From: Candidatus Omnitrophota bacterium
Lineage (GTDB): Bacteria; Omnitrophota; Gorgyraeia; Zapsychrales; Zapsychraceae
Assembly: GCA_029261055.1 (NCBI GenBank)
Contig: JAJDCA010000071.1
Location: 153,778-217,777 of the forward strand
Length of the DNA: 64,000 nt
Reading direction: 5' to 3'
Shown: positions 4,827 through 58,750 of the stretch, piece after piece
Layout of the letters: each line of letters starts with the position of its first letter
Numbering within the stretch: position 1 is the stretch's first letter
Notes under the pieces: generated by a model
What the model was told of the DNA's origin: nothing
What the model saw: only the letters and a program-made list of their open reading frames with translations
Database searches by the model: none
Translations under genes and position numbers: made by a program

Positions 4827-5978
4827 TTGGAGGAATTTATGGATATTAAAAGGTGTATCAATCTTCGGGCAACCCTTAATAAAAAATCATTATTTTTATT
4901 TGGCCCCAGGCAGACGGGGAAGTCCTGGTTGATCAATCGTTATTTTAAGGATTGTAGAATTTACGATCTTTTGGATAGTGAAACATATCTTTTATTAAAT
5001 CAAAATCCAAAAAGATTAGAACAAGAAATTCAGCCAGAGGATAAGATTGTTGTTATTGATGAAATACAAAAACTTCCATCTCTTCTTGATGAGGTGCATC
5101 GGCTTATTGAACAGAGGGGGCTTCATTTTTTATTGACCGGATCTAGTGCAAGAAAATTACGCCGGGGTGGTGTCAATTTATTGGGGGGGAGGGCGCGGTC
5201 GCGTCATTTACATCCTTTTATTTTTAACGAACTTAATAATCATTTCAATTTATTAAAAGCTCTTAATTATGGTTTGATTCCTTCTATTTATTTTTCTGAT
5301 GCCCCCCAGGAAGATTTAAAAGCATACGCCGGTGATTATTTAAAAGAAGAAATAGCGACGGAAGGGTTAACTCGTAATGTGCCGGCGTTTAGCCGTTTTT
5401 TACAAGTAGCAGCCTTATGCAACGGATTATTAATCAATTATGCCAGTATTTCTAGTGACGCGCAGGTGCCAAGCAGTACGGTTCAGGAGTATTTTCAAAT
5501 TCTACGCGATACCCTTATTGGGTTTGATGTGCCCGCGTGGAAAAAAAGTATAAAGCGTAAGCCTGTGGGTACCTCAAAATTTTATTTTTTTGATGGAGGC
5601 GTTGTTCGATTTTTACAGAATCGATCCCCCTTTGAAGAAAAATCTCCAGAATTTGGAGATGCCTTTGAAACGTACATAGCGCATGAATTAAAATCTTTTA
5701 TTGATTATTCTCTGTCAGGGGAGCTTTGTTACTGGCGCTCTAGATCAGGTTTTGAAGTTGATTTTATTGTTAATGATATGCTGGCGGTGGAGGTAAAAGC
5801 AAAACAAAATATTACACCCAAAGATATGCGTGGTATTAAAGCTTTACAGGAAGAGCATAAATTATCGCATTATGTTATTGTTTCTTTAGAACAGCGGCCT
5901 CGCATTGTAAATAATATTCACATCCTTCCCTGGAAAGATTTTCTTTTTCAATTATGGGATGGGAAATTTAATAAATAG
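4827..5978 (+). CDS. AAA+ superfamily ATPase (AAA_14 + DUF4143 / COG1373 family)
   Basis: Walker A 'GPRQTGKS' and Walker B 'VVIDEIQ'. The C-terminal region is typical of DUF4143. This is the first of three diverged paralogs in the window. Confidence 0.7.
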   Translation: MEEFMDIKRCINLRATLNKKSLFLFGPRQTGKSWLINRYFKDCRIYDLLDSETYLLLNQNPKRLEQEIQPEDKIVVIDEIQKLPSLLDEVHRLIEQRGLHFLLTGSSARKLRRGGVNLLGGRARSRHLHPFIFNELNNHFNLLKALNYGLIPSIYFSDAPQEDLKAYAGDYLKEEIATEGLTRNVPAFSRFLQVAALCNGLLINYASISSDAQVPSSTVQEYFQILRDTLIGFDVPAWKKSIKRKPVGTSKFYFFDGGVVRFLQNRSPFEEKSPEFGDAFETYIAHELKSFIDYSLSGELCYWRSRSGFEVDFIVNDMLAVEVKAKQNITPKDMRGIKALQEEHKLSHYVIVSLEQRPRIVNNIHILPWKDFLFQLWDGKFNK

Positions 5979-6114
5979 TCAAATTTTAAAAGAATAATAA
6001 CATGTTGATACATAATAGTTTATGTTTTAATGAGTTTTTATTCGTTTATTAGAATTTCTGTAAACTATTAACCATCAGTTGGTTACAATATTCCTACCTG
6101 AAATTTGTGTCCCC

Positions 6115-6166
6115 TTGACATGTGCTTAAAATATGTTATCTTTTCAGTGTATTAGAGAAGAAAACG
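6115..6166 (+). promoter_or_regulatory. Putative sigma70-type promoter (TTGACA-N16-TATCTT) plus a ~38-nt conserved block shared with the 52163..52213 region
   Basis: TTGACA at 6115-6120, 16-nt spacer, TATCTT at 6137-6142. The block aaaatatgttatcttt[t/c]cagt[g/a]tatta..aagaaaacg is nearly identical upstream of the paralogous giant gene at 52327. Confidence 0.55.
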
Positions 6167-6204
6167 ATATCTTGAGTCATTTCGTATAAAAACCTGCCAA
6201 TAAT

Positions 6205-6239
6205 CCTGCCTGTCGGTAGACAGGCTCGCCACGGATTGG
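6205..6239 (+). promoter_or_regulatory. Conserved leader element: hairpin (gcctgtc-ggta-gacaggc) followed by invariant CTCGCCACGGATTGG
   Basis: The same architecture occurs at 52244..52273. The hairpin there has a different stem sequence but the same structure, with the identical 15-nt motif after it. Confidence 0.5.
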
Positions 6240-6267
6240 CCTATTTTTAACTCAATAGAGGAAAAAT

Positions 6268-9200
6268 ATGTTTATTTTACGCCAAAAACAACGGGTGCGT
6301 GTAGCGTACAGAGTGTTATCAGCCTTTATTATGGCCGTATTTTCCGTAACAACAATTATCCCAAGTGGTTATGCACAGAGTGTATCTTTGCCAACGGCAG
6401 GCACGGTTTTAAACCTTCCTGTGCCCGGCACGATGGTGGGCATAACCGAAGGATTTACCCCGGCTCTGATTAAAGGTATTACCATTTATCCGGACAATCC
6501 TTTGATGTTTGATTTTATTGTGGATAGCGGGCATTCTGAGATGACTGGAGAGGCCCTTAAAGATGAGGCGTCTGATATGATTAAATATTTCCTGGCGGCC
6601 TTAACCATTCCGGAAAAGGATTTATGGGTCAACTTGAGCCCGTATGAGGCGGACCGTATTATTCCTGATGGTTTGGGCGACACCTCTATGGGTCGCGATA
6701 TGTTGTCGCAAGATTATATGCTTAAACAACTTACGTCTTCGATGATGTATCCGGAGGATGAGCTGGGTGGTGAATTTTGGGAGCGTGTGTATGATAAGGC
6801 TTATGAAAAATTCGGCAACACCGACATTCCAATGAATACTTTTAACAAAATTTGGATTGTGCCACAGGCGGCTGAAGTCTATGAGCGTGAAAAAAGTGCT
6901 TTTGTAGTGGGCAGCCGTTTAAAGGTTATGTTGGAAGAAGACTATGTCGCTTTGCAGAAAAATTTAGGGGTGGAACAATATGGATTAGATGCGATGCCCA
7001 AGAGCGAGGCCAAGGTTGTCAGTGGTGTCACCTCAGAGGTAGTGCGTGAAGTCTTGATTCCTGAAATCGAACGCGAAATAAACGAAGGCGCCAACTTTGC
7101 CAAACTCCGCCAGATCTACCATGCCATGATTTTGTCTACGTGGTACAAAAAGAGGCTGCAGGAAAGTTTATTGGGACAGGTGTATGTAGATCAAAATAAA
7201 ACCATGGGCGTCGATACTCAGGATAAGCAGATCAACCAAAAAATTTACGATCAATATGTCGAATCTTTTAAAAAAGGCGTGTACAACTACATTAAAGAAG
7301 ATTACAACCCCGCCACCCAACAAATCACCCCCCGCAAATATTTCTCCGGCGGAATGAATCAATCCATGTTGAGCCGTATTTTTAAATTTATGGATAGGCC
7401 GACACGATTTGAGGTAGCACCGACAGGATTTGAGATATCCTACCAAACAAGTCTGATCGATGCCAATAAAGACAATGCGAGTATTGCCGTGCGTGTGAAA
7501 GAAGAGGTTGAATCGCAGGTTGATTTTGTGTTGATGAACTCAGAAAAAGAAATCGTTTCGGATGAGTCGATGCTTCAAGATTTTGATCCGTTTTTTTTGA
7601 TGAGTCTTATAACAAAATGGTCGCCTAAATATGAGGATGATTTAAAGGTATTCCACTTTATAAGGCATTTATATCTTGCCTGGATAGCGACGAAGGGGGA
7701 TCTTGCTAAGGCAACAATGACTTTAACGGAGAAGTCTTCATTTAAAAAATTTATTCAGGATAAAACTTTAGTCAATAAGGCTATTGAAGGGTCGCTTTAT
7801 GTGAATAATCCGAATATTAAAGGTTTGCTAAAAAACATCCGCACAGATATCACCAAGGCTGAAAATAAAATAAAGGCGGTAAGAAGAGAATTTGTTGGGG
7901 TGAATGAAAAAAGTACACAGGAAACGCAGGAGGCGGGGATGATCACGCTTCAGAATGTTCTTTTGAAAAATAAGAGTGCTGGTAAGACAGGGGAGGAGGA
8001 TGTTTTTGGAATAAGCATTAGTCGATTTCCAAGTGATCAATACGGTGAATTCGAGGCAAATTTTATCCAGAAAGATGGAAATACTGTGCAAATAATTGCA
8101 TGGCAAGAAAATAAAATTATTGACGTTGATTACAATCAGACAATGGAAAATTTTTACAAGGATCATAATTTATTTTATCGCAATAATAAAAAAGGGATTC
8201 CAACGGTAATTATTGAGGAAAAGTACGGAAAAAATAGAAAAATTTATAAAATTACACGTGGTGAAGGGCAAGAAGTAATGAAACAAAAGGATTTCAAAGA
8301 GCTTGTTTGGAATGATACGGCGATGGTTACAGATAAAGAAAGTCAGGCCGCTAAGAAGATATTGTTTGATTTTAGAGAAAGTGAAGCTAATAGGATGAAT
8401 ACTGCAAGAATACGAAGAGTCCATGTTCTTATGAATGCAATGAGAATTCGGTATGCCATAGGAAAAGATGAAGGAAGCAGTGTTGTTGGCATATTTTATG
8501 ATATGGAAAAAGCATTCTTGAAAAAGCAATCCAACTTCAAGCACTCAGATGCAATATTATTTTATCATACTGTTTTAGCGTTGGATCTACCAGACGAAGA
8601 ATACGTAACGCTAAAAAATAGTGTGATGCAAAGCTTGTTCCGTTTGGCAGAGAGAATAATGAAGGAAGAGGGGATCGTCATTAGTGTAAAGGAGATTTTA
8701 GCCCAGAAGGAAAAAATAAAAATGGCTATGATAAACGTTTTGCCGCATATGAAGCATTTTAAACATATGGAGTGGGGTGTCTATGATTACATTGATCGGG
8801 TTTTAAGCAGTTCAGATAAGAAATGGGATGAAGTATATTATTACAAGTACAAGGTGGCGATAAGTTTAGGGGAGAGCTATTCCAAGTTAGGGCATTCATT
8901 TGAAGGTGTTTTTGCGAAGATTAAGGGGAAGATAGCTTCTTTTCGGGCCAATGATTATGTAGATGTGTTTAGACAGTTGAATAAAAAATATACCGCGGAT
9001 GCATTGTATCAGGGGTTACCCTACACGGTAGATGGGGTGCGGATTTTTAAATCGAGATTAAAACAATACCGTCAGGATTTCAGATCGGCCATGGATACGC
9101 ACTATAAAAATATTTTTAAACTCGCACTTAAAGGTGAGCTGGAAGACAGTCCTTATGATATTTATGAAAATGAAGGGTCATCATTGCAAAATCAAGCAGG

Positions 9201-11340
9201 TGCGCAACTTTCTACAGAAGAATTAATTTATCTTAATGGCATTGCGGCAGGAAATGAATCGTTCTGGTTAGAAGCGTGGAGAATGCGCAATGCTTTTCAA
9301 AACAGTCCGGATGAGGTCGAAAGACTAATAATCCTTGAGGATGTTTTTAATGGCAAATCAATAGAGTTGGGGCTTTTAAAAATAGAAAAGGACGAAAAAA
9401 AGAAGGATAAGGAAAAAATAGCAATACTTGAAGTTGAAATGAAATCGATCGAAGAAACAATTGACCTTCTTTTAGAGAAAAAGCAAGAGATTTTAAGTGA
9501 AGTAGAGTATGTTGCGGAGGATGAGAATGAACAGAATCTAGCCATGTTAGTAGGGCTGAATCAGAAGATTGATCAATGGCTGCAGGGGCTTGAAAAAGAT
9601 GAAGACGCGGCGATGGCAGCGTTTAAATCATTGCTCCTTAAGATTAAACAGAAAATAACGGGGATATCTAATCGGAAAAAAATTGTTGTCGAGGATATTC
9701 CAGGTCTTGAGACGCTTGGGGTATCGATGGAAAATTTCCTAAATGCAGAAGGTATCCATACACCCAAAGATGCGGCTAAGTTGGGTAAGAGCATCAATGA
9801 GACGATAAACAGAGCGATTAAAGCATTTAGAAAGCGAGGTTCAGTGGATTTTACAGAAGATAATCTTTTCGCACTTCTTCTTAAGAAATATGATGAAAAT
9901 GTGCCCATTAATCGGGACGATTTAATGAAAGATTTAGAAAAATTTTCCCTAGGTGTGTATTCGAATTCTGTTGAGTTTGGCCTTATCAAATTACAATTAC
10001 AAATGAAAGTGTTTCTAAATCGGAACGTCGAGTGGTTTTTGAGTCCTATGCATCACTTTCCTCAAGCGGTGGCCAGGGCCAGTCAAGATAATAATATTGG
10101 GAGAACTATTGAAATGTTGGGCGAAATTTCGACGTATTTAGATGATGGAGTAACCTTTGCTGGAAACGCGGCGAGTAGGATATTCAAGAAGTATAAATAC
10201 ATAGATGAAAATAATTATGAAGAGATGGCCGATGAGTATGCACAAGTAGTGCGTTCTCTTCAAGATCACATCAAACAAATTGCAGATGAAGATCATGAGG
10301 AATTTCAAGAGATGATAGATATTTTAAATGCCAGTATTCAGCAACAGCTTGAAGATGTCTTGGGGGGTATTGCAGAGGCTAAAGTTCCTTATGTAGAAGA
10401 AAGAGGAGGTAAACGTTTTTCCATAGGTATTCCTTATGATTTGAGGGATAGCTTTGCTAAAAATGTAGTGAGTATCTATGAACGCCATACTGACTGGATG
10501 AACATTCTTAAAGTATCTTTAAAAGGGACCTATCGTGATTTGAAAATTAAAATAGATGAAGTGCGGGAGATGGAGAAAAAGTTCATAAATGATTATTTTA
10601 ATGTCAGGCCAAATAGCAATCTTTTGAAGGAAGAAGAAAAAGAAATATATATCCCAAGAGTAGAAGAGTTTTATGAGAAGTTAGCTGAATTTGAAGGAGT
10701 AAAAATGCCATCTAAGGAGAAGCGTTGGATTACGGGGTGGATTTTAAAATTAGAGGGCATATATAAAGGATTAGGAGGGGCAGACAAGGTTATTGATCGC
10801 GTGAATGTAAAGACAATAGGCGACGGCATGGACACCTGGGATGATTTGCCGGATTTTGATCAAATAACGGCAGAATTAGATGACTCCATGATGGCCACGA
10901 CTCTGGCAGAATTGCTAGAGAAATTGAAAATGTCAAAAGATGAAGTGGATAAAAAGGCTGTTACAAAACAAATATTTAGACTGGTGGACGAAGATTTAGA
11001 CGAGCCTTTAAAAGGTAGATTTCTTAAACAATTCACTGAATTAAATGGTGAAACGGATAAAGCGAGCATAACTCCCATTGGTGGTATTAATTTTGATTCG
11101 GCGATGTTGAATTTGCAGATTAAGCGCGATGGGGCTGGGGTGCCCTTGCCTTTGATTGAGCAGGATATGGATTTGGGTATGCGTGTCCAAGGATTTTTGC
11201 CGATTATTATTAATGCTACTCCAGTAAGCCTGCCGCAGTTGCTTGGTTTTTCCGATACTGTACCGCAAGAGGCCGATTCTTCGACTATGAGTCTGTCTTA
11301 TCACATCCTCACCCGCGACCCGCAGGATATTATCATTTAA
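6268..11340 (+). CDS. Giant secreted/surface protein of unknown function (1690 aa). N-terminal conserved domain, long K/E-rich coiled-coil centre, conserved C-terminal ~65-aa module
   Basis: N-terminal signal/anchor (positively charged, then hydrophobic, AQS). Residues ~40-375 are about 70% identical to the 52327 paralog. The central region is strongly lysine/glutamate-rich with heptad-like repeats. The C-terminal block GGINFDSAMLNLQIKRDGAGVPLP…LPIIINATPVSLPQLLGF is shared with the paralog. I recognise no known domain. Confidence 0.75.
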   Translation: MFILRQKQRVRVAYRVLSAFIMAVFSVTTIIPSGYAQSVSLPTAGTVLNLPVPGTMVGITEGFTPALIKGITIYPDNPLMFDFIVDSGHSEMTGEALKDEASDMIKYFLAALTIPEKDLWVNLSPYEADRIIPDGLGDTSMGRDMLSQDYMLKQLTSSMMYPEDELGGEFWERVYDKAYEKFGNTDIPMNTFNKIWIVPQAAEVYEREKSAFVVGSRLKVMLEEDYVALQKNLGVEQYGLDAMPKSEAKVVSGVTSEVVREVLIPEIEREINEGANFAKLRQIYHAMILSTWYKKRLQESLLGQVYVDQNKTMGVDTQDKQINQKIYDQYVESFKKGVYNYIKEDYNPATQQITPRKYFSGGMNQSMLSRIFKFMDRPTRFEVAPTGFEISYQTSLIDANKDNASIAVRVKEEVESQVDFVLMNSEKEIVSDESMLQDFDPFFLMSLITKWSPKYEDDLKVFHFIRHLYLAWIATKGDLAKATMTLTEKSSFKKFIQDKTLVNKAIEGSLYVNNPNIKGLLKNIRTDITKAENKIKAVRREFVGVNEKSTQETQEAGMITLQNVLLKNKSAGKTGEEDVFGISISRFPSDQYGEFEANFIQKDGNTVQIIAWQENKIIDVDYNQTMENFYKDHNLFYRNNKKGIPTVIIEEKYGKNRKIYKITRGEGQEVMKQKDFKELVWNDTAMVTDKESQAAKKILFDFRESEANRMNTARIRRVHVLMNAMRIRYAIGKDEGSSVVGIFYDMEKAFLKKQSNFKHSDAILFYHTVLALDLPDEEYVTLKNSVMQSLFRLAERIMKEEGIVISVKEILAQKEKIKMAMINVLPHMKHFKHMEWGVYDYIDRVLSSSDKKWDEVYYYKYKVAISLGESYSKLGHSFEGVFAKIKGKIASFRANDYVDVFRQLNKKYTADALYQGLPYTVDGVRIFKSRLKQYRQDFRSAMDTHYKNIFKLALKGELEDSPYDIYENEGSSLQNQAGAQLSTEELIYLNGIAAGNESFWLEAWRMRNAFQNSPDEVERLIILEDVFNGKSIELGLLKIEKDEKKKDKEKIAILEVEMKSIEETIDLLLEKKQEILSEVEYVAEDENEQNLAMLVGLNQKIDQWLQGLEKDEDAAMAAFKSLLLKIKQKITGISNRKKIVVEDIPGLETLGVSMENFLNAEGIHTPKDAAKLGKSINETINRAIKAFRKRGSVDFTEDNLFALLLKKYDENVPINRDDLMKDLEKFSLGVYSNSVEFGLIKLQLQMKVFLNRNVEWFLSPMHHFPQAVARASQDNNIGRTIEMLGEISTYLDDGVTFAGNAASRIFKKYKYIDENNYEEMADEYAQVVRSLQDHIKQIADEDHEEFQEMIDILNASIQQQLEDVLGGIAEAKVPYVEERGGKRFSIGIPYDLRDSFAKNVVSIYERHTDWMNILKVSLKGTYRDLKIKIDEVREMEKKFINDYFNVRPNSNLLKEEEKEIYIPRVEEFYEKLAEFEGVKMPSKEKRWITGWILKLEGIYKGLGGADKVIDRVNVKTIGDGMDTWDDLPDFDQITAELDDSMMATTLAELLEKLKMSKDEVDKKAVTKQIFRLVDEDLDEPLKGRFLKQFTELNGETDKASITPIGGINFDSAMLNLQIKRDGAGVPLPLIEQDMDLGMRVQGFLPIIINATPVSLPQLLGFSDTVPQEADSSTMSLSYHILTRDPQDIII

Positions 11341-43122: not shown

Positions 43123-43313
43123 GACACGAAATCGCTTTTAAGAGATTGCTGATAAATTATTTGCAATCTCCTAAGCAAAGATTAGCACATTCGGCTCAGA
43201 GGAGATTTCGTTCTGCTCGATCTCCAATTCGCCGCATGCACTAATCTTTGCTTTGAACGATTACAACTTTTAAGTTGTAAATTTTTGGTCAACCCGTCTT
43301 ATCAAGAGGTTGT
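43123..43313 (+). repeat. Structured repeat element, copy 1 (long imperfect hairpin; carries an extra 34-nt sub-hairpin gagattgc…gcaatctc)
   Basis: ~85% identical to 58597..58750 over the shared segments (cgaaatcgcttttaag…aaagattagcacattcggctcagaggag…ctccaattcgcc…atgcactaatcttt…cgattac…ggtcaa(c/t)ccgtctta..aagaggtt). Inverted-repeat arms pair into a long stem-loop. Confidence 0.6.
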
Positions 43314-44378: not shown

Positions 44379-45104
44379 ATGAATTATCAAGATAAAATAA
44401 AAGAGTATTTAGAAAAAACTAAAGATTATAGCCCGGAAGAAATTATCAAATTTGCCTATGAAGAGTTTGGGGCAAGGGTAAAATTTGCTTCGAGTCTGGG
44501 AGAAGAAGATCAAGTCATAGCCGATATGATTTCTCGTGAAGCGCCACAAATTGAAATATTCACATTAGATACAGGTCGGCTTTTTCAAGAGACGTACGAA
44601 TTGTTAGCTAAAACACAGAAAAGATATTCTACAAATTTAAAGGTCTATTATCCCGACACAAAGGCTGTTGAAGAAATGGTACAGCAAAAAGGGATTAATT
44701 TGTTTTATGAAAGTGTTGAAAATAGAAAACAATGCTGTCATGTACGAAAGATTGAACCTTTGCAAAGGGCTTTGAAAGATACGGATGCCTGGATATGTGG
44801 ATTGCGTCGGGCGCAATCCATTACGCGTACGGCCGTCGCAACATTTGAGTGGGACGAAGGTAATCAGAAAGTTAAAATTAATCCTTTGGCGGCTTGGAGT
44901 ATGCAACAGTTGCAAGAGTATATCAGCCAAAATAGTGTTGATGTTAATCCTTTGCATCAGCAAGGTTTTGTTAGTATCGGTTGTGCGAGTTGTACACGTG
45001 CACTTAAAGATGGAGAAGATATCCGCGCTGGTCGGTGGTGGTGGGAAGAACCGGAACAGAAAGAGTGTGGATTGCATGGCCGTTTAAAAGATGCAAAGAA
45101 ATAA
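44379..45104 (+). CDS. cysH: Assimilatory adenylyl-sulfate (APS)/PAPS reductase, thioredoxin-dependent, with Fe-S cysteine pairs
   Basis: PAPS-reductase fold. 'KQCCHVRKIEPL' and 'SIGCASCT' cysteine pairs typical of [4Fe-4S] APS reductases. C-terminal 'ECGLH'. Confidence 0.85.
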   Translation: MNYQDKIKEYLEKTKDYSPEEIIKFAYEEFGARVKFASSLGEEDQVIADMISREAPQIEIFTLDTGRLFQETYELLAKTQKRYSTNLKVYYPDTKAVEEMVQQKGINLFYESVENRKQCCHVRKIEPLQRALKDTDAWICGLRRAQSITRTAVATFEWDEGNQKVKINPLAAWSMQQLQEYISQNSVDVNPLHQQGFVSIGCASCTRALKDGEDIRAGRWWWEEPEQKECGLHGRLKDAKK

Positions 45105-45111
45105 GATGTAA

Positions 45112-45131
45112 CCTGCCTGCCGGCAGGCAGG
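45112..45131. repeat. 20-bp perfect palindrome CCTGCCTGCCGGCAGGCAGG (member of a small palindromic repeat family)
   Basis: Perfect self-complementarity in the cysH-cysD intergenic spacer. Related copies at 6205..6224, 53120..53135 and 53289..53315. Confidence 0.7.
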
Positions 45132-45158
45132 GAAGCAGAGAAAAGGAATTAAAAAAAT

Positions 45159-46058
45159 ATGATAAAACAAAAAACTATGTCCAAATTAGATGTCATTGAA
45201 TCGCAGAGTATTTATATTTTGCGTGAAGCTTATCGAGAATTTAAAAATTTGGCTATGCTTTGGTCAATCGGTAAGGATAGTACCGTGTTGTTGTGGTTGG
45301 CCCGTAAGGCTTTTTTTGGGCATGTGCCTTTGCCTTTAGTGCATATTGATACACATTACAAAATTCCGGAAATGATAGAATATCGAGACAAACTCGCCCG
45401 TAAATGGAAATTGAATATGGTTTACGGCCAAAATACAAAAGCACTTGAATCGAAACAAACATTTCCTGATGGTGCTATTGATCGGATTGCCTGCTGTAAA
45501 TCATTAAAATCTGAAGCCCTTAAACATACATTGGCTGGAGATTGGCCAAGATACCGGATGAATCATCAAACAGGGAAGTATGATTTGGATACAAACACAG
45601 AACCGTATACCGGTGTGATTGTCGGTGTGCGTGCTGACGAAGAAGGTAGCCGTTCCAAAGAGAGGTATTTTTCCCCTCGCGATCGCAACAATGATTGGGA
45701 TGTTGGTGACCAACCGCCGGAATTATGGAATCAATTTAAAACAGATTTTGCGCCAGGAACCCATTTGCGTATTCATCCTTTATTAGACTGGACAGAATTG
45801 AATATTTGGGAATACATCGAACGGGAAAATATTCCGATTACTAAACTTTATTTTGATCAAGGCGAAGGCAAACGATACCGTTCGTTAGGATGTTATCCTT
45901 GTACAACCCCTGTAGAATCTCCGGCTAAAAATGTACAAGACATCGTTGAAGAACTACGTGGCGGAAAATTCGCCAACATCGCCGAACGCTCGGGACGTGC
46001 ACAAGACAAAGACGACGGCGGGGGTCTTGAGACGCTTCGCCTCGATGGATACATGTAA
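45159..46058 (+). CDS. cysD: Sulfate adenylyltransferase subunit 2
   Basis: '[20 protein letters not shown]' PP-loop ATPase motif. Overall CysD similarity. Confidence 0.9.
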
Positions 46059-51762: not shown

Positions 51763-52162
51763 GCCTAAAGTATACGTTATAATCGTATATTTATCAAGGA
51801 AATTATACGATAATGATAAAATAATAATGTAATTGTTAAATACCATGAAATAAGAAATTGACAATTTTGAATATCATGTCCTTAAGATATGTAAGTATTT
51901 AGCATTCTGAGTTGTCGAAGAGCGTTAAAAGCATGAAATTATTTCTAGCAGGACATTGAAAGCCCTGCGCATTCCATGCTGACACCGGGGAATTTTCTGA
52001 GTGTTTTCTTAAAAAAATAAGTATTTTAAAAGAAATGTATCATGTTTTAAATCAATAGGTTATGCAATCTACAAATTTCTTCATTTTTATAATATATTAT
52101 AACATTATTTATTTCAATATGTTATGAATCATCTGGCTTCATTTCTCTCCACTTGACACTCG

Positions 52163-52213
52163 TCCAAAATATGTTATCTTTCCAGTATATTAATAAGAAA
52201 ACGTTTTATTCCA
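52163..52213 (+). promoter_or_regulatory. Putative sigma70-type promoter (TTGACA-N16-TATCTT) plus conserved block, paralogous to 6115..6166
   Basis: TTGACA 52163-52168, TATCTT 52185-52190. The block aaaatatgttatctttccagtatattaataagaaaacg is nearly identical to the one upstream of the first giant gene. Confidence 0.55.
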
Positions 52214-52243
52214 CATAATTACACCAATAATTCCTACAGCAGG

Positions 52244-52273
52244 TAGGTCTCGCCACGGATTGGTTAAATTTAT
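52244..52273 (+). promoter_or_regulatory. Conserved leader element: hairpin (cctac-agcag-gtagg) followed by invariant CTCGCCACGGATTGG
   Basis: The structure is conserved relative to 6205..6239 with a different stem sequence (compensatory changes). The 15-nt motif is identical. Confidence 0.5.
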
Positions 52274-52326
52274 AAAAATTAATTAGACATTGAACTACAA
52301 TGTTTTTTCATAATCCGGAGGAAATA

Positions 52327-55300
52327 ATGAACATTTACATAAAAAAACAACGTTTTTGTCTGTTTTACAGGGCTTTATCCGCCTTTATTGCCGTGGCATT
52401 CCTAACCACCAGCATTGTGCCGCAAGGGTTTGGGCTGAGCGCAGTCGAAGCCTATGCGCAGAGTATGTCTGTGCCAGCACCAATAGTGTTAAATTTGCCT
52501 GTACCGGGTACAATGGTCGGCATGACCGAAGTATTTACACCGGCAATGGTCAAGGGCATCACTATTCATCCGGATAATCCGCTTTTATTTGATTTTCTCA
52601 TCAATAAAGGGGATACCCATCTTAAAGGCGACGAATTAAAGACGGAAGCCAATAAATTGATTAAATATTTTTTGGCGGGCCTAACCGTGCCGGAGAAAGA
52701 AATGTGGGTTAACCTCAGTCCGTACGAAGCAGATAGAATTATCCCTGAAGGTTTTGGCGATACCGAAATGGGCCGGGATTTGCTTGCGCAAGATTACATT
52801 TTAAAACAGCTCACCTCATCATTGATGTATCCAGAAGATGAATTAGGTGAGGCCTTTTGGCAACGTGTTTATGAAAAATCTTATGAAAAATTTGGTCATA
52901 CAGATATTCCGATGAACACATTTAACAAAATTTGGATCGTGCCGGAAAACGCATCTGTGTATGAACACGAAGAAACTTCGACCGTGTATTTAGTGGATAG
53001 TCATTTGAAGGTGATGCTTGAAGAAGATTATGTTGCTGCGCAACATAATAGTGACGCGTCGCTCGTGGCTCGTGACTCGAAAAAACATTCGGATATCAAG
53101 CGCGCCACGCGTCACGCCATGCCTGCCGGCAGGCAGGAGCGACTAGCGACGAACCTTATCCGAGAGATTCTTATCCCCGAAATCGAACGCGAAGTCAACC
53201 AAGGCAAAACGTTCGCCAATCTGCGCCAGATTTATCATTCCGTTATTCTGGCCACGTGGTACAAACGAAAATTTGCTGTAGGGAACGAGCACCTGCCTGC
53301 CGGTAGGCAAGGTGCCCAATCCTTATTAGGACACGTGTATGTAGATCAAAACAAAACCAAAGGTGTAGATACGCAGGATAAAGACATTAACCAAAAGATT
53401 TATAATCAGTACGTCGAATCTTTCAAGAAAGGCGTTTACGATTACATCAAAGAAGATTATGATCCCGCGACTCGACAGATCATCCCGCGGAAATATTTCT
53501 CAGGAGGAGCGGAGCTTTTTCTGGCCAAAATAAATCACGCTATGCTCACTCCAGAAAGGCGTGTAGAGATAACAAGCGAGGGTAAGAATACAGATCGTGT
53601 TGTAGTGGAATTGAATGAAATCGGATTAAAAGGTACTGACTATGCACAAGTAGTTACAGATTCAGGAGAATATTTACAGCGGGCAGGTGATATTAAAAGT
53701 GCGGAAAATGTAGATGCAGTAATTAGTCCTATTGTCGATAATGCGATGCAAACATTTCCAGGCTTAATGAATAAATTTTCAAAGGATGGGTATGTTTTAC
53801 ATGCATTGGAACGAGGAGCTGATTTAACGCCTTGGGATGGAGAGGTTGTTATGGAATTGCTTGGTCAAATGACTGAAGGGCGTGAGTATGCGAATGGAGT
53901 TATTTATGATTCGGGTCATTATAGAAGCAGAAGTTTTACTTATTTTAACATGCCATTTTTGAGTGAATTGAGTGAAGATATTATTAGGTTTTCCGTTGAT
54001 TCATCTCATAAAAATCCAATCGAAGTAGTAGATACATCTGAAAATTTTGAGTTTTTTCTTGGTGAAAATAAAGAAACACAAAAAATTGAATTTTTAGCTT
54101 GGGAATGGAAACGACGCGATGTGAGCTATGAAGAACATAACATTTCCTATAAAGGTGAAAATGGGAAATATGATGTTCTTAAAATAAGCCCTAAGCAATA
54201 TGGGAATGTTTTGAGTAAAGGATTTGGAGTTGAAGAAAAACCTTCTAGTAATCAGATTGCCTATTTAGGGGCTACACAACTAAAAGGGAAAGAGTTTAAG
54301 GAATGGAATTTTTCTAATATTGAAGAAACTTCTCAGGGAAAGTGGGGGCATGGCTCTTCATATAGTATGGATTATCCTGAGTTTAAGAAAGACTTTATTC
54401 ATTACACGCAATATAGAAATGATGATGTAGATTTAATGACACACGTTTATTCAATTCCAGTAATTATGAAAGATAATCTTTCTTATAATATGGGTAAAAA
54501 TAAAAATAGCGAAGGTTTTGAAATTCGTATTGGCAGAAATAAAAATAGAGAAATTGAGTTTATGTTGTTAACAGCTCCACAAAAAATTATTTTAAGGTAT
54601 AAAAATAAGCTAGGAATGCCGAAAAGTAAAGTGATAACGAAAGCTGAACGTGATCAAATTTTAAAAGATCCGACAATAATTAATACAATAATATTTAATA
54701 GTAAGAAAATGTCCAAGGAATGGGTTGTTGATGAGGCAAAGGAAAAAGAATTTTCAGAAAACACTAAAACACGTATTCTAAATAATCAGGTAATAGTAGA
54801 TGAGCATACTAAGGTATTAAAAAATAAGAGAGTTGTGGAGATTAAAGAAAATGGAAAGAAGCCCTCCAACTTAATGCCGGAGAATAAAAAAGAACATGAA
54901 AAAGTTATGCGTATTAATAAAATAATAGAAGAGATGAAGTCGGTTGTTAAGAACCATTCTTTTCGTGACCTTTATTTTGGTCCAATTCTAGGACGAAAAA
55001 ATATTAAATCTTTTCGTGATTATTTAATAGCAGGGAATATACAAGACATTCAGGCGATTGTTTCTGGTATGAATCCACAGAAGGCAAAAGATAAGGGAGA
55101 AAAAAAGATTTTTAGAAAATATTATGAAAGTCCAAAATTTTCTAATTTAGCAACACAAATCAAATCAAAAGCAAAAGCTTTAATAGATAAGCTTCCTCAA
55201 ATCAAGGGAAAAAATCTAGAAGCCGAGATAAATTCTTTTCGTGAAGATGTTTTAAATGAAATTGAAAATCTTGATGCGGCGATGATTGGAAATGGTCAAG

Positions 55301-56097
55301 ATAATACCACCGTGTCGGCAGAAATAAAGCCAACTATCGTTATGATAGAAGATAAGGACGAACCTAATTCTAGCGAGCCTGATAAAGCTATGATGGAGAA
55401 AAAGACAATTTTATTAGTTGAGGATGATGAAGATATAAGAAAAGGATTGAAGGATTTCTTTGAGTCGAGAGATTACAATGTTATTGCGATGGAAAATGGT
55501 AAAGAGGCTTTAACACTTATAATAAAGAGAAAGGAAATGAAAGAGCCTCTTGATCTTGTTATAAGTGACTTAGATATGCCAGAGATGGATGGGATGGAGT
55601 TGCTAGAAAATGCAGAAAAAATATGGCCCGAATTACTTTTTATTATGCAATCAGGGAGAATGCCTTCAAATATTTCTGGTTTGCTTGAGAGGAAATCTAA
55701 TGTACATAAGGCTTTGGATAAAAGATTTGCTTTAGAGAAATATGAATCTGCGTTAAATGATTTGTGGGGGGATGTTGATTCAGCAATGATAAGGGCGGAG
55801 GAAGTGACGGGGGTAAATAAAGTTGGTGGTATCAATCTTGACCCGGCCATGCTGGATTTGCAGATCAAGCGTGATGGCAACGGTGTACCATTGCCGGTGA
55901 GTGAACAGGATTTTTCGATGATGCATATTGAAGGGGTTTTGCCTGTTATTATCAATGTAACGCCAGTTAATATTCCTATGCTGCTAGGTTTTGCAAATGA
56001 CGTACTCCCTGTTGCTGGCTGTCCATCGGATGATGAAATGATTGATTGCGATCGCGACTTGATTTCCATCAAACCGGAAGAGGAGGTTTTTTTGTAG
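52327..56097 (+). CDS. Giant secreted/surface protein paralog (1256 aa) with an embedded CheY-like receiver (REC) domain near the C-terminus
   Basis: Start at the ATG preceded by CCGGAGGA. N-terminal ~400 aa are about 70% identical to the 6268 protein. REC domain at ~residues 1030-1150 (LLVEDDEDIRK…LVISDLDMPEMDG…IMQSG…). C-terminal module GGINLDPAMLDLQIKRDGNGVPLP…LPVIINVTPVNIPMLLGF is shared with the paralog. Confidence 0.75.
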   Translation: MNIYIKKQRFCLFYRALSAFIAVAFLTTSIVPQGFGLSAVEAYAQSMSVPAPIVLNLPVPGTMVGMTEVFTPAMVKGITIHPDNPLLFDFLINKGDTHLKGDELKTEANKLIKYFLAGLTVPEKEMWVNLSPYEADRIIPEGFGDTEMGRDLLAQDYILKQLTSSLMYPEDELGEAFWQRVYEKSYEKFGHTDIPMNTFNKIWIVPENASVYEHEETSTVYLVDSHLKVMLEEDYVAAQHNSDASLVARDSKKHSDIKRATRHAMPAGRQERLATNLIREILIPEIEREVNQGKTFANLRQIYHSVILATWYKRKFAVGNEHLPAGRQGAQSLLGHVYVDQNKTKGVDTQDKDINQKIYNQYVESFKKGVYDYIKEDYDPATRQIIPRKYFSGGAELFLAKINHAMLTPERRVEITSEGKNTDRVVVELNEIGLKGTDYAQVVTDSGEYLQRAGDIKSAENVDAVISPIVDNAMQTFPGLMNKFSKDGYVLHALERGADLTPWDGEVVMELLGQMTEGREYANGVIYDSGHYRSRSFTYFNMPFLSELSEDIIRFSVDSSHKNPIEVVDTSENFEFFLGENKETQKIEFLAWEWKRRDVSYEEHNISYKGENGKYDVLKISPKQYGNVLSKGFGVEEKPSSNQIAYLGATQLKGKEFKEWNFSNIEETSQGKWGHGSSYSMDYPEFKKDFIHYTQYRNDDVDLMTHVYSIPVIMKDNLSYNMGKNKNSEGFEIRIGRNKNREIEFMLLTAPQKIILRYKNKLGMPKSKVITKAERDQILKDPTIINTIIFNSKKMSKEWVVDEAKEKEFSENTKTRILNNQVIVDEHTKVLKNKRVVEIKENGKKPSNLMPENKKEHEKVMRINKIIEEMKSVVKNHSFRDLYFGPILGRKNIKSFRDYLIAGNIQDIQAIVSGMNPQKAKDKGEKKIFRKYYESPKFSNLATQIKSKAKALIDKLPQIKGKNLEAEINSFREDVLNEIENLDAAMIGNGQDNTTVSAEIKPTIVMIEDKDEPNSSEPDKAMMEKKTILLVEDDEDIRKGLKDFFESRDYNVIAMENGKEALTLIIKRKEMKEPLDLVISDLDMPEMDGMELLENAEKIWPELLFIMQSGRMPSNISGLLERKSNVHKALDKRFALEKYESALNDLWGDVDSAMIRAEEVTGVNKVGGINLDPAMLDLQIKRDGNGVPLPVSEQDFSMMHIEGVLPVIINVTPVNIPMLLGFANDVLPVAGCPSDDEMIDCDRDLISIKPEEEVFL
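53120..53135. repeat. Palindromic repeat copy (tgcctgccggcaggca) inside the giant gene, encoding an MPAGRQE insertion
   Basis: 16-bp perfect palindrome. It coincides with an extra peptide segment that is absent from the paralog. Confidence 0.55.
53289..53315. repeat. Imperfect palindromic repeat copy (cacctgcctgccggtaggcaaggtg) inside the giant gene, encoding a …HLPAGRQGAQ insertion
   Basis: Same family. It coincides with a 13-aa in-frame insertion relative to the paralog (KRKFAVGNEHLPAGRQGAQSLLG vs KKRLQESLLG). Confidence 0.5.
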
Positions 56098-56473: not shown

Positions 56474-57151
56474 ATGGCGCATAAAATTCTAATTATCGAA
56501 GATGACCGGGATATTGCGGAGATGATTGAGTATAATTTGCAGCGGGAGGGGTATGTGGTTCTGAAGGTGTTTGATGGTCAGGAGGCTTTGCCGGCGGTTA
56601 CGCGGCATCGGCCGGATTTGGTTATTTTGGATATTATGTTGCCTTCGGTGGATGGGTTGGATATCTGTAAGGCTTTGCGTAGAGATGAAACTACCATTGA
56701 TCTTCCGATTATTATGTTAACTGCCAAATCGCAAGAGTCGGATAAGGTGATTGGTTTGGAGCTCGGGGCCGACGATTATGTGACCAAGCCTTTTAGTCCG
56801 CGCGAATTGATGGCTAGGGTTAAGGCGGTGCTGCGACGGACGAAAGTAGATAAATCTTCGTCCAAAACTTCTTTCGGCCCTGTAATCATTGATCATAAAC
56901 GTCACAGGGTTGACGTGGATGGTCAGGAGGTTATGTTGACGGCTACGGAATTTAAGCTATTAGATTTCTTGGTCCAAAAGACAGGGGCGGTTGTTTCACG
57001 TGATCAGATTCTTGATGCGGTTTTTGGGTACAGCTCCGAAGTGTATGACCGCACGGTCGACGCCCATATTAAATCCCTACGTAAGAAACTGGGACCTGCC
57101 AAAGATTACATTGAAACCATCCGGGGTTTTGGATATCGATTCAAAGAGTAA
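56474..57151 (+). CDS. phoB: OmpR/PhoB-family response regulator
   Basis: REC domain (ILIIEDDRDIAEM…LVILDIMLPSVDG…) plus winged-helix output (…RGFGYRF). Adjacent to a PhoR-like kinase, a Na/Pi cotransporter and a PhoU-like gene. Confidence 0.75.
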   Translation: MAHKILIIEDDRDIAEMIEYNLQREGYVVLKVFDGQEALPAVTRHRPDLVILDIMLPSVDGLDICKALRRDETTIDLPIIMLTAKSQESDKVIGLELGADDYVTKPFSPRELMARVKAVLRRTKVDKSSSKTSFGPVIIDHKRHRVDVDGQEVMLTATEFKLLDFLVQKTGAVVSRDQILDAVFGYSSEVYDRTVDAHIKSLRKKLGPAKDYIETIRGFGYRFKE

Positions 57152-57156
57152 TTTTT

Positions 57157-58584
57157 ATGAAAAATAAAATCCTTTGGAAATTTTTAGGGGCGTATCTTCC
57201 TTTAATTTTGTTGGCTATTCTTGTGCTTAATTTTTTTGTGAGTTTTAGCTTACGAAAACATTTTGAAAAGAAAATTGCCGATCAATTGCATAGTAGTTCT
57301 CTTTTAATTGGTGATATTTTTGGAACAACATTATGGCAGAATCAACAAGAAAAAATTATTCAACAAAAAGTCAAAGATCTGGGGCAAAGATTAAATATTC
57401 GTATTACGATTATTGGTAAAAATGGTGAAGTTTTGGGGGATTCTGAAAAGAATCCACAACATATGGAGTTGCATAATAATCGTCCTGAAGTCATAGATGC
57501 TCTTAGATATGGACTTGGAGAGAGTTCACGCTACAGCAGCACGCTTAAATATGATATGAAATATTTAGCGACAACGGTTCGTGATAATGGAGGTGTGCTT
57601 GGCGTTATTCGTTTGGCTCTTCCATTAACAGAGGTTGGGGCGCAGATCCGTGTAATTTATCGGGCGGTTTTAATCGGTGGGATTTTTGCTGCATTTTTGA
57701 TGCTGATCATCGGTTATTTTATTTCGCGTAGTATCACTACGCCTATTAGTGAAATGAGAGATATTGCCGGGCGAATTGCTAAAGGGGATTTTTCACGAAA
57801 ATTGAAAGTTAAAAGTAAAGATGAATTGGGTCAGCTGGCGCATTCTATGAATTCTATGGCAGATGAATTACAAATGAAAATTAGTCATTTGGAAAGAATG
57901 GAGCAGATGAAGACGGACTTTGTTGCCAATGTTTCACATGAACTTAAGACGCCGTTAACGTCTATTAAAGGTTTTATTGAAACTTTAGAGCATGGGGCCG
58001 TGGATGACAAGGAAACGGCTAAGCGGTTTATGGGTATTATTCGCAAACATGCTGATTCTTTAAGTAATATTGTTGATGATTTATTGAGTCTATCTGAAAT
58101 TGAACCTGGAAAGAATGAATTAATAAAAGTGCCGTGTGATTTGAAAGGAATATTAGATGAAGTTATCTTAGGGTTTAGTCATCGGTTGAAAGGAAAAAAC
58201 CAACAGTTAACGTTGGAGGTTAAAGGCAGAAATTTTCAACTTAAGGCGGATAAGATTAAGCTTGAGCAGATATTTGTTAATTTGATTGATAATGCTAGTA
58301 AATATACGCCGGAAGGTGGGGAAATTAAGATTACAATGGATGAACAAAATGATGTTTTGCAGGTAATTGTGCAAGATAATGGCATAGGCATTCCTAAGGA
58401 AGATTTAGATAATGTCTTTGAGAGGTTTTATCGTGTAGACAAAGCGCGTTCCCGCGAATTAGGGGGGACAGGTCTTGGATTGTCTATTGTTAAACATATT
58501 GTCGCTTTGCATAAAGGAACTATCGATTTAAAAAGTGAGATTAATAAAGGTACGGCCATAACGATTTCTTTTCCGAAAGTTTAA
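57157..58584 (+). CDS. phoR: Sensor histidine kinase, PhoR-like (TM, HAMP, HisKA, HATPase_c)
   Basis: Two TM helices, HAMP, H-box 'FVANVSHELKTPLTSI', N/G boxes (…DNGIGIP…GGTGLGLSIV…). Confidence 0.75.
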   Translation: MKNKILWKFLGAYLPLILLAILVLNFFVSFSLRKHFEKKIADQLHSSSLLIGDIFGTTLWQNQQEKIIQQKVKDLGQRLNIRITIIGKNGEVLGDSEKNPQHMELHNNRPEVIDALRYGLGESSRYSSTLKYDMKYLATTVRDNGGVLGVIRLALPLTEVGAQIRVIYRAVLIGGIFAAFLMLIIGYFISRSITTPISEMRDIAGRIAKGDFSRKLKVKSKDELGQLAHSMNSMADELQMKISHLERMEQMKTDFVANVSHELKTPLTSIKGFIETLEHGAVDDKETAKRFMGIIRKHADSLSNIVDDLLSLSEIEPGKNELIKVPCDLKGILDEVILGFSHRLKGKNQQLTLEVKGRNFQLKADKIKLEQIFVNLIDNASKYTPEGGEIKITMDEQNDVLQVIVQDNGIGIPKEDLDNVFERFYRVDKARSRELGGTGLGLSIVKHIVALHKGTIDLKSEINKGTAITISFPKV

Positions 58585-58596
58585 CCTTAATCAGAG

Positions 58597-58750
58597 ACGC
58601 GAAATCGCTTTTAAGTAAAGATTAGCACATTCGGCTCAGAGGAGACCTCGTTCTGCTCGGCCTCCAATTCGCCTAATGCACTAATCTTTACTTTGAGCGA
58701 TTACGACTCAACTCGGTCAATCCGTCTTAATAAGAGGTTATGTATCTTCA
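58597..58750 (+). repeat. Structured repeat element, copy 2
   Basis: Matches 43123..43313, minus that copy's 34-nt sub-hairpin. Lies between the phoR stop and the Na/Pi transporter start. Confidence 0.6.

Follow-up and report, generated by a model that had tools for sequence, protein, structure and literature searches.

P, a 21-nucleotide palindromic unit in the spacers and genes of bacteria from many phyla and in phages

Introduction

Rickettsia palindromic elements (RPEs), reportedly described by Ogata et al. in 2000, are about 100 to 150 bp long and are confined to Rickettsia and its relatives. Mitochondria of yeast and other fungi harbor mobile GC clusters, to which the 'byp' elements are related. 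GC clusters are organellar, lineage-restricted, and 30 to 50 bp in length; they often come with a target duplication such as AG, and some are bypassed in translation. IS1397 and ISKpn1 are full insertion sequences that carry their own transposase and insert into the loops of palindromic units. This work concerns a shorter object, a 20-nucleotide (nt) perfect palindrome made of two inverted arms of 10 nt each, CCTGCCTGCCGGCAGGCAGG, referred to here as P. It was found in a 64-kb stretch of DNA from a Candidatus Omnitrophota bacterium (GenBank assembly GCA_029261055.1, contig JAJDCA010000071.1, positions 153,778 to 217,777 of the forward strand); this whole stretch is called the window, and positions are counted from its first letter. 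Among bacterial repeats, repetitive extragenic palindromic sequences (REPs) are defined by a terminal GTAG or CGTC tag, fall into two superfamilies, and have been documented inside genes, including tRNA synthetase and ligase genes (PMC3733652). PARCEL repeats are presented, in part of the published account, as tandem repeats within genes that are linked to the variation of surface proteins in Mollicutes and other microbes (PMC2996958).

Results

Copies of P in the window

Scanning the window sequence located P without mismatches at positions 45112 to 45131 (copy A), exactly where the original prediction had seen a perfect 20-bp palindrome in the cysH-cysD spacer. Three further sites resemble it: CATGCCTGCCGGCAGGCAGG at 53118 to 53137 (copy B; 1 mismatch) and CCTGCCTGCCGGTAGGCAAG at 53292 to 53311 (copy C; 2 mismatches), both within the open reading frame (ORF) 52300 to 56097, and CCTGCCTGTCGGTAGACAGG at 6205 to 6224 (copy D; 3 mismatches), which lies 44 nt upstream of the ATG of ORF 6268 to 11340. 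The two genic copies had initially been placed at 53120 to 53135 and 53289 to 53315; these limits are slightly off, and the objects they cover are the same. No match to P at ≤3 mismatches arose in 100 dinucleotide-preserving shuffles of the window, and none at ≤5 mismatches in 50 block shuffles. The G+C content of the window is about 38%, and the copies stand out as G+C islands. In all, the window holds three clear copies of P plus one or two decayed copies in gene leaders.

Copy A occupies a 54-nt spacer between two ORFs of the 3'-phosphoadenosine-5'-phosphosulfate (PAPS) reductase type (44379 to 45104 and 45159 to 46058), on both of which the Pfam family PF01507 was found; it begins 8 nt past the stop codon of the first and ends 27 nt ahead of the ATG of the second. 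Together with the next G, it forms a 21-nt unit on the plus strand (45112 to 45132). This 21-mer, P plus G, fits all three clear copies, with A and C on the plus strand and B on the minus strand. The unit of copy B, CCTGCCTGCCGGCAGGCATG plus G (53117 to 53137, minus strand), lies in frame and encodes A-M-P-A-G-R-Q. That of copy C, CCTGCCTGCCGGTAGGCAAG plus G (53292 to 53312, plus strand), contributes seven added in-frame codons (...H-LPAGRQG-A...) and is located at the center of GCA|TGC; here, a G19A change followed by G and a 1-nt insertion of A are indistinguishable. Apart from two tRNAs, an Rfam scan of the window returned nothing.

Two in-frame additions to a giant gene

The host of copies B and C, termed G2 here (52300 to 56097, plus strand), encodes a protein of 1,265 amino acids (aa) with a conserved N-terminal domain of Omnitrophota type, a receiver domain at residues 1037 to 1148, and a conserved C-terminal tail. 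Its paralog in the window, G1 (6268 to 11340, plus strand; 1,690 aa), serves in the alignment as the empty-site comparator for both genic insertions. The two proteins are 60% identical across about 400 N-terminal residues, and the protein alignment gives G2 two extra segments, one of 10 and one of 13 residues, exactly at the two palindromes. The earlier observation that the PAGRQ segments are missing from an otherwise colinear paralog is thereby borne out. A search with the G2 N-terminal domain retrieved 1,543 homologs at E ≤ 1e-5, which their sources name Candidatus Omnitrophica or Omnitrophota. Among the best 120 of these, a PAGRQ-like peptide is absent from all, both at site 1 (the hypervariable linker that holds copy B) and at site 2 (the position of copy C), where the original prediction had allowed for an ancestral sequence shared by orthologs. 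Most of the 120 have no insertion at all at site 2 (WYKxxL-KE-SLLG).

In-silico removal of 53117 to 53137 and 53292 to 53312, 21 nt each, leaves the ORF intact, with the junctions ...RATRH-ERLATN... and ...WYKRKFAVGNEH-AQSLLG.... The reading frame is kept open with or without either copy, as had been claimed, each copy being 21 nt or seven codons. Since any in-frame deletion preserves the frame, this result shows merely that each copy amounts to a whole number of codons.

An AlphaFold model of the G2 N-terminal domain, generated from 58 family members and with a mean pLDDT of 74, places the site-1 peptide (residues 265 to 270) at the end of a linker with pLDDT <50 and site 2 in a coil between helices 297 to 317 and 333 to 338 with pLDDT of about 61. 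Both copies in G2 are lineage-specific additions, and on this model they fall in predicted loop or linker segments. An independent assembly, a Logan contig from run SRR15505515, encodes the identical G2 protein, so the inserts are not an assembly accident of the window. Pattern searches of metagenomes found no other family members with P at site 2 and no empty cysH-cysD site, and a protein search with the 117-residue insert region gave only 3 uninformative fragments.

Copy C is nested in the center of an older, degenerate outer palindrome, GTAGGGAACGAGCA ... TGCCCAATCCTTAT (53278 to 53326, plus strand), and the two together account for the 13 extra residues of G2 relative to G1. At the same site, one homolog (P0003, locus L190) has a perfect 28-nt palindrome, GTAGGGGCTGAAAATCTTCAGCCCCTAC, and another (P0029, locus L191) has a triple palindrome nest that includes P-like arms. 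Judging by these sequences, site 2 of the family appears to be a repeated landing place for palindromic DNA. Elsewhere in the family, site 1 of P0029 also contains GTAGGGGCGGGTTTGAAACCCGCCCGTAC, and the homologs P0009 and P0105 have KVGTGRDL in the site-2 loop. The flanks of site 1 in G2 consist of CGTCGCT-type heptamers (53057 to 53077) and their inverse, AGCGACT/AGCGACG (53138 to 53151); these heptamers pair in the predicted fold and are translated within the linker. Locus-specific tandem repeats of 6 to 8 nt also flank P at many other loci (e.g., L047, L089, L098, and L108).

Filled and empty sites in miaA

The miaA gene of a Ginsengibacter metagenome-assembled genome (MAG; L071) encodes a precise 7-residue insertion, TLPTGRQ, relative to the solved MiaA structure 2qgn. 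A 7-residue insert is present at this site in 17 of 120 close orthologs and missing from the other 103. Empty alleles read GGA AAG ATT TCA, and filled alleles read GGG AAA A[CCTTGCCTACCGGCAGGCAGG]TT TCC, the inserted letters being CC TTG CCT ACC GGC AGG CAG G. Comparison of the two allele types therefore defines an insertion of exactly 21 nt, made up of P and one further base. The insertion splits an Ile codon, without duplication, at the center of a short palindrome, GGAAA(A)TTTCC. At the hairpin apex, codon 4 of the insert is never the canonical GCC in miaA; it is always one or two steps away and encodes T, G, D, P, or H. Orthologs that come from different projects have inherited point variants and decayed descendants of the insert.

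One filled/empty pair of miaA genes (P0137 at L218 versus P0163 at L219) shows 93.8% DNA identity and a single 21-nt gap. The empty member reads AAA TTT CCG TTG (K-F-P-L) rather than the usual AAA/G ATT TCN YTN (K-I-S-L) and has three base changes within 6 nt of the insertion site, which may be the footprint of an imprecise loss. Filled genes are often closer to empty ones than to other filled groups (91.8% versus 82% in one case and 84.5% versus 76% in another). Given this interleaving of filled and empty genes, the state must have switched more than once, through recurrent gain at a single nucleotide position or through recurrent loss.

Distribution across phyla and phages

One genome per GTDB species was scanned with an 18-nt core pattern, CCTGCCTGCCGGYAGGCA, which catches 3 of the 4 window copies. 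At least 120 loci in these species-representative genomes match the pattern; the phylum tallies that follow are counts among the matches listed, assigned by reading record titles. Bacteroidota account for at least 38 loci, 8 of those listed being from cultured isolates, and the carriers listed include Winogradskyella echinorum KCTC 22026, Olivibacter oleidegradans CCM 7765, Flagellimonas yonaguniensis, Terrimonas NS-102, Longitalea luteola, and Flavivirga 57AJ16. Patescibacteria (candidate phyla radiation) contribute at least 31 loci, including one in the curated complete WWE3 genome MEWB01000001. Planctomycetota follow with at least 9, the Omnitrophota/PVC group with at least 8, MAGs labeled Gammaproteobacteria with at least 7, and genomes of delta-proteobacterial, Bdellovibrio, or Desulfobacterota type with at least 9. 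The remainder comprises Ignavibacteriota (at least 4), Nitrospirota (at least 4), Chloroflexota (at least 2), Margulisiibacteriota (at least 2), and unclassified genomes (at least 6).

The IMG/VR database holds 66 stretches that match the P pattern, versus 2 and 20 for two composition-matched control palindromes, and none of the control matches in IMG/VR was a complete palindrome. A BLAST search of 7.3 Gb of plasmid sequence with a P dimer gave no full copy, the longest exact match being 18 nt, in Rhodococcus plasmids. One viral contig of 30.8 kb, IMGVR_UViG_3300025106_000007 (L144 and L184), encodes a terminase, portal, capsid, protease, and tail and thus belongs to a tailed phage. Up to about 15 copies of P are present on this single contig; a private variant, CATGCCTACCGGCAGGCAGG, occupies at least 6 dispersed sites, and a tandem array with a 21-nt period and at least 10 units reaches the contig end. 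Elsewhere, the copies at L162 have a CACG/CGTG variant in common, and those at L160, L170, and L173 are perfect. Private variants common to non-homologous sites on one contig point to spread, or concerted copying, within a genome.

Genomes labeled as about ten phyla and phage contigs thus contain an identical 20-mer set in unrelated flanks. With at least 120 genome loci and 66 viral stretches, P is a dispersed repeat family rather than the few isolated occurrences that had been considered as the other possible outcome. No description of the P sequence, of its halves, of the encoded peptides, or of repeat peptides next to them was found in the full-text literature, and an earlier description is possible outside the library searched.

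Boundaries and placement of the unit

The site, ORF, and neighborhood counts in this section are taken among the listed genome loci. The perfect 20-mer is present at 69 of 124 sites. Base composition at the flanking positions of these 124 sites is near random, and direct flank repeats of ≥3 nt, as a target-site duplication would leave, occur at none of them (0/124); the two observations together indicate that the moving unit is essentially the palindrome itself. Extended conservation around the copies, of the kind that a larger transposable element of the miniature inverted-repeat type (a MITE) would give, was not seen in these near-uniform flanks. The unit is usually P plus one further base, G or T, for a total of 21 bp. 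With the common C13T variant setting the orientation, a G or A occupies position -1 at 63 of 73 sites, and a G or T occupies position +1 at 64 of 73. Compared with the specific tetra- or pentanucleotide that IS200/IS605-type substrates have as a target 5' of the insertion, what is seen for P is a weak flank bias, a purine at -1 and G/T at +1.

Stop-free ORFs of ≥200 aa contain 26 of 127 P sites (about 20%), versus 77% of random positions in the same loci. The deficit shows that P is mostly intergenic (about 80% of sites), which answers the question, raised with the original prediction, of how intergenic and in-frame genic placement compare. Copies within ORFs were checked against solved structures for MiaA, RfbB, and LeuRS; others, recognized by eye, lie in ORFs of ValRS, FtsK, DNA-ligase, acyl-CoA-synthetase, histidine-kinase, and type IX secretion system tail type. 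At 15 of these 26 sites, the copy is read in the LPAGRQ frame. Canonical P has no TAA, TAG, or TGA in any of the six frames, and the T variant adds one TAG. As the unit is free of stops and its 21 nt make seven codons, a copy that lands in a tolerant loop is simply translated, mostly as LPAGRQ.

Flanking inverted stems of ≥7 bp accompany 5% of P sites, compared with 0.5% of control positions, and in nests of P within P the inner and outer copies carry the same variant. P therefore shows some preference for the centers of existing palindromes, a partial one that concerns about 5 to 10% of sites.

At three Patescibacteria loci, P is found in tRNA fragments, within or at the end of the D-arm (L028:4041, L056:3628, and L066:2127). 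A role for P as an interrupter of functional tRNA genes was considered and rejected: P sits in truncated 5' tRNA fragments, and no intact gene is hit. The L056 fragment duplicates the 5' half of an intact tRNA-Val(TAC) located directly downstream, with 'A+P' replacing one C.

Several other short palindromes or hairpin repeats recur at these loci, with identical sequences in loci of different phyla and within a few kilobases of P. They comprise TCCGCCAGCTGGCGGA (L018, L028, L030, L058, and L069), TCCCGATAGCTATCGGGA (L073, L091, and L110), GTCATTGCGAGGAG... (L014, L057, L064, L069, L088, L094, and L128), and GTCATCCTGAGC...CGAAGGATCTC (L103 and L139). At L088 and L103, P is inserted at the center of such a companion. 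P may be one member of a class of cross-phylum mini-palindromes, of which TCCGCCAGCTGGCGGA and TCCCGATAGCTATCGGGA would be further examples.

Hairpins in the leaders of G1 and G2

Copy D (6205 to 6224, plus strand) is a degenerate P-like hairpin with 3 mismatches in the 5' leader of G1, downstream of a promoter-like site at 6115 to 6142. The leaders of G1 and G2 (5975 to 6267 and 52015 to 52299) are homologous and have a common promoter-like TTGACA-16-TATCTT site, and their alignment reveals a hairpin, CCTACAGCAGGTAGG, at the homologous place in the G2 leader (52233 to 52247, plus strand). Both leaders follow the motif CCAATAAT-[hairpin]-CTCGCCACGGATTGG, with the same flanks and a different hairpin between them. 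Copy D does make the leader hairpin, as the original prediction held, but the register is off by 4 nt (GCCUGUC-GGUA-GACAGGC), and instead of marking a separate invasion it may be an old or remodeled hairpin that the paralogous leader has as well.

Copy D matches P at 17 of 20 positions, which is not expected by chance according to the shuffles. It is probably a decayed member of the P family and is the least certain copy in the window. It could be a copy older than the gene duplication and remodeled since, or it could be a leader hairpin with no more than a likeness to P. The G2 leader hairpin CCTACAGCAGGTAGG may be a more decayed relative of the P unit. In addition, ATATGTTAT recurs upstream of homologs of G1 and G2.

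Other features of the giant genes and of the window

G1 and G2, which belong to a very large Omnitrophota family, have in common a C-terminal tail of about 70 aa (GGINxDxAMLxLQIKRDGxGVPLP), and their middle regions are unrelated; many homologs are truncated at contig ends. The N-terminal domain of the family matched no Pfam family, and a Foldseek search of the model against PDB gave no significant match. The receiver domain of G2 (55408 to 55743, residues 1037 to 1148) is of the response-regulator type and lies near the C-terminus. On the 3' side of G2, positions 56474 to 58584 contain two further genes, one for an OmpR-type response regulator and one for a sensor kinase of HAMP/HisKA/HATPase type. 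Such a pairing is unusual for a protein of this size, in which a hydrophobic helix is predicted near the N-terminus (residues 12 to 30 of the model).

A 97-nt repeat is present in two copies of 90% identity, at 43172 to 43268 and at 58612 to 58708. It folds as a hairpin of about 82 nt (z of -5.7 and -6.1), and some of the differences between the copies are compensatory. One copy lies between an ORF for a PHO4-family transporter and a PALP (cysteine-synthase-like) ORF, and the other lies between a histidine kinase and an Na/Pi-cotransporter plus PhoU pair. The repeat has no Rfam match; it may represent a structured RNA with a regulatory role or else another kind of small repeat.

Discussion

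P as a small insertion element

The boundaries of P are sharp, its flanks are unrelated, it leaves no target-site duplication, its presence and absence differ by a clean 21 nt, and it occupies non-homologous sites in many genomes and phages. P is probably a discrete, tiny, non-autonomous, dispersed palindromic insertion element. The best reading is that it is REP- or RPE-like in behavior, yet it belongs neither to the REPs nor to the MITEs when judged by the features that define them. The original prediction, which had a REP/MITE-like element invading both regulatory and coding DNA, was right about the invasion of both; the MITE likeness did not hold, as P has no separate terminal inverted repeats and no target-site duplication, and the GTAG/CGTC tag of REPs is absent.

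Mechanistically, P may be moved or copied as a single-stranded DNA (ssDNA) hairpin by an enzyme acting in trans. The best candidate would be an HUH/Y1 'peel-and-paste' transposase such as a RAYT (REP-associated tyrosine transposase) or an IS200-like enzyme, because the known chemistry that combines no duplication, seamless excision, and hairpin recognition is that of HUH/Y1 enzymes (IS200/IS605 and RAYT). A host hairpin-processing or repair activity would be the alternative. Insertion would somewhat favor the centers of existing palindromes, and copies would be lost again by deletion. The Y1-type route specifically is put forward tentatively, as the less probable outcome. The cysH-cysD spacer copy and the leader copy may influence how the mRNA folds, but none of the observations calls for a function.

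Several observations weigh against reading P as a mobile element. IS200/RAYT-like genes are near 3 of the 120 listed loci, within fetched stretches of up to 8 kb, and all three are in Bacteroidota (3 of 38); tblastn found no Y1 transposase in the 64-kb window, and none occurs in the other 117 listed loci. At one of the three, in a Chitinophagaceae MAG (L061:3671-4178), the T variant of P is situated about 25 nt upstream of an IS200/RAYT-like Y1 gene with an HMH motif; this gene has an apparent frameshift near its start, and P is present on one side only. The other two (L011 and L091) have related Y1-like ORFs 1.5 to 3.5 kb from P. Likewise, all-versus-all clustering of 3,384 ORFs from the 120 listed loci revealed no common family as a linked gene (maximum, 7 of 120). 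No known REP-like system readily accounts for a 20-mer that is identical across phyla, REPs being species-specific. The taxonomic labels of MAGs are possibly wrong; the isolates, the curated WWE3 genome, and the window span at least three phyla. In the source genome, 3 to 4 copies were seen in 64 kb, and a 'high-copy family' is unproven. The interleaved miaA genes, compared through a neighbor-joining tree and pairwise identities, cannot separate repeated gain from loss. Finally, nested P-in-P insertions add 20 nt rather than 21, and the unit length is not fully settled.

A bolder formulation, which we regard as possible and no likelier than the Y1 route, is that P is an undescribed 'nano-transposon': a 21-nt hairpin, of a length divisible by three and stop-free in all six frames, that is tolerated in genes, crosses phyla possibly on phages, inserts without duplication and with a preference for palindrome centers, and excises, all by means of a widely conserved host or phage enzyme acting on ssDNA hairpins and with no dedicated transposase linked to it.

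Other explanations

The strongest of the other explanations, though an unlikely one, is that P is a functional hairpin under selection, such as an mRNA stabilizer or processing site, an attenuator, or a protein-binding site, which has spread by recruitment. Copy A in an operon spacer and copy D in a 5' leader are where such an element would sit, and both giant-gene leaders have retained a hairpin in this position, although its sequence differs between them. All window copies also fold well (z from -2 to -3): copy A gives an 8-bp hairpin of -16.7 kcal/mol (z -3.1), a stem with a CCGG loop, and copy C plus its flanks gives an 11-bp hairpin (z -2.6). However, P sites have no common gene context, about 20% of them are in unrelated long ORFs that include housekeeping genes, and phage DNA, tandem arrays, and nests of one copy within another also contain P. 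The apical bases, moreover, decay freely in miaA. An intrinsic terminator in particular was rejected: terminator prediction was negative for copy A, and P has no T run on its 3' side.

Less probable still is the independent local creation of each copy, by template-switch (quasi-palindrome) mutation or by slippage from a (CCTG)n seed. The outer palindrome at site 2 of P0003 does resemble an inverted copy of the neighboring native codons, and P-in-P nests carry the same private variant in the inner and outer copy. Local events cannot, however, account for hundreds of unrelated sites in many phyla that carry an identical 20-mer with identical boundaries; no enrichment is seen for the matched control palindromes, and no arm template is seen in the flanks.

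That PAGRQ is an ancestral, functional coding sequence of the giant protein, its likeness to the intergenic palindrome being coincidental or secondary, is highly improbable. Both segments are in frame and are translated with the rest of the ORF. They are nevertheless absent from the paralog and from the best 120 homologs, the metagenome pattern for the site with P gave nothing, and both fall in low-confidence loops of the model. At the DNA level they are nearly identical to a non-coding copy 8 kb away, for which the chance expectation is 0. A sequencing or assembly artifact (adapter or chimera junctions) has next to no standing, for while chimeric junctions can yield perfect palindromes and many carriers are MAGs, the same G2 protein is on an independent Logan contig, P is present in cultured isolates and a curated complete genome, and variants and decayed descendants are inherited in miaA orthologs from different projects with frames kept open.

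Significance

REPs and RPEs are regarded as lineage-specific. That one and the same 21-bp unit occurs in Patescibacteria, Omnitrophota, Bacteroidota, Planctomycetota, and phages leaves two options: either an object far below the size of any known transposable element moves horizontally, or the P sequence is written by a conserved enzyme. P is a concrete, searchable marker for tracing such transfer. It also explains odd 'LPAGRQ'-type inserts in the proteins of uncultivated bacteria, which is relevant to annotation, alignment, and structure prediction; read in this manner, the two extra peptide segments of G2 would be passenger DNA in loops rather than functional motifs. The cultured Bacteroidota carriers and the filled and empty miaA alleles offer a tractable test system.

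Comparison with known systems

Like REPs and REPINs, P is a GC-rich, hairpin-forming repeat in the 20- to 40-bp range that is mostly intergenic and sometimes genic (tRNA synthetase, DNA ligase). As in REP/RAYT systems, it has no target duplication, and its loss is seamless or nearly so, as for 'peel-and-paste'. It differs in that it ends in CCTG/CAGG with no GTAG/CGTC tag, GTAG being only internal in the C13T variant; in that it is a perfect palindrome of only 21 bp without the usual bulge of REPs; in that no RAYT gene flanked by P (a REPtron) is present in the window or the listed loci; and in that it is identical across phyla, whereas REP families are species-specific.

RPEs come near P in being palindromic selfish DNA that lies in frame in coding genes, is translated, has a surface or loop placement, and is absent from orthologs. 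Size and flanks set the two apart: P, at 21 bp, is 5 to 7 times shorter, has no conserved flanks, and is found in many phyla and in phages. MITEs (Correia/NEMIS) and palindrome-associated transposable elements (PATEs) are likewise small, non-autonomous, hairpin-forming repeats that may sit in transcripts. MITEs, however, have terminal inverted repeats around an internal segment and a target-site duplication, and P has neither; PATEs (IS200/IS605) need two different subterminal hairpins, whereas P is a single hairpin. With the peel-and-paste substrates of IS200/IS605, P has in common the lack of target duplication and the seamless presence and absence. A preference for palindrome centers recalls IS1397 and ISKpn1, P being nested about ten times more often than controls (G2 site 2, miaA, and P-in-P); in P, this preference is partial only (about 5 to 10% of sites).

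The GC clusters resemble P in being short GC-rich palindromes of AT-rich genomes that occur in spacers as well as in coding or rRNA sequence, have no mobilization protein of their own, and form nested copies; P differs from them in being translated, in extending across bacterial phyla, and in lacking a target duplication. PARCEL repeats, as far as part of the published account goes, have in common with P a palindrome in the DNA, coding capacity on either strand, and a horizontal distribution among distant microbes, and P departs from them in being a single, mostly intergenic unit (PMC2996958). By analogy, the closest relatives of P in spirit would be the mitochondrial GC clusters and the PARCEL repeats.

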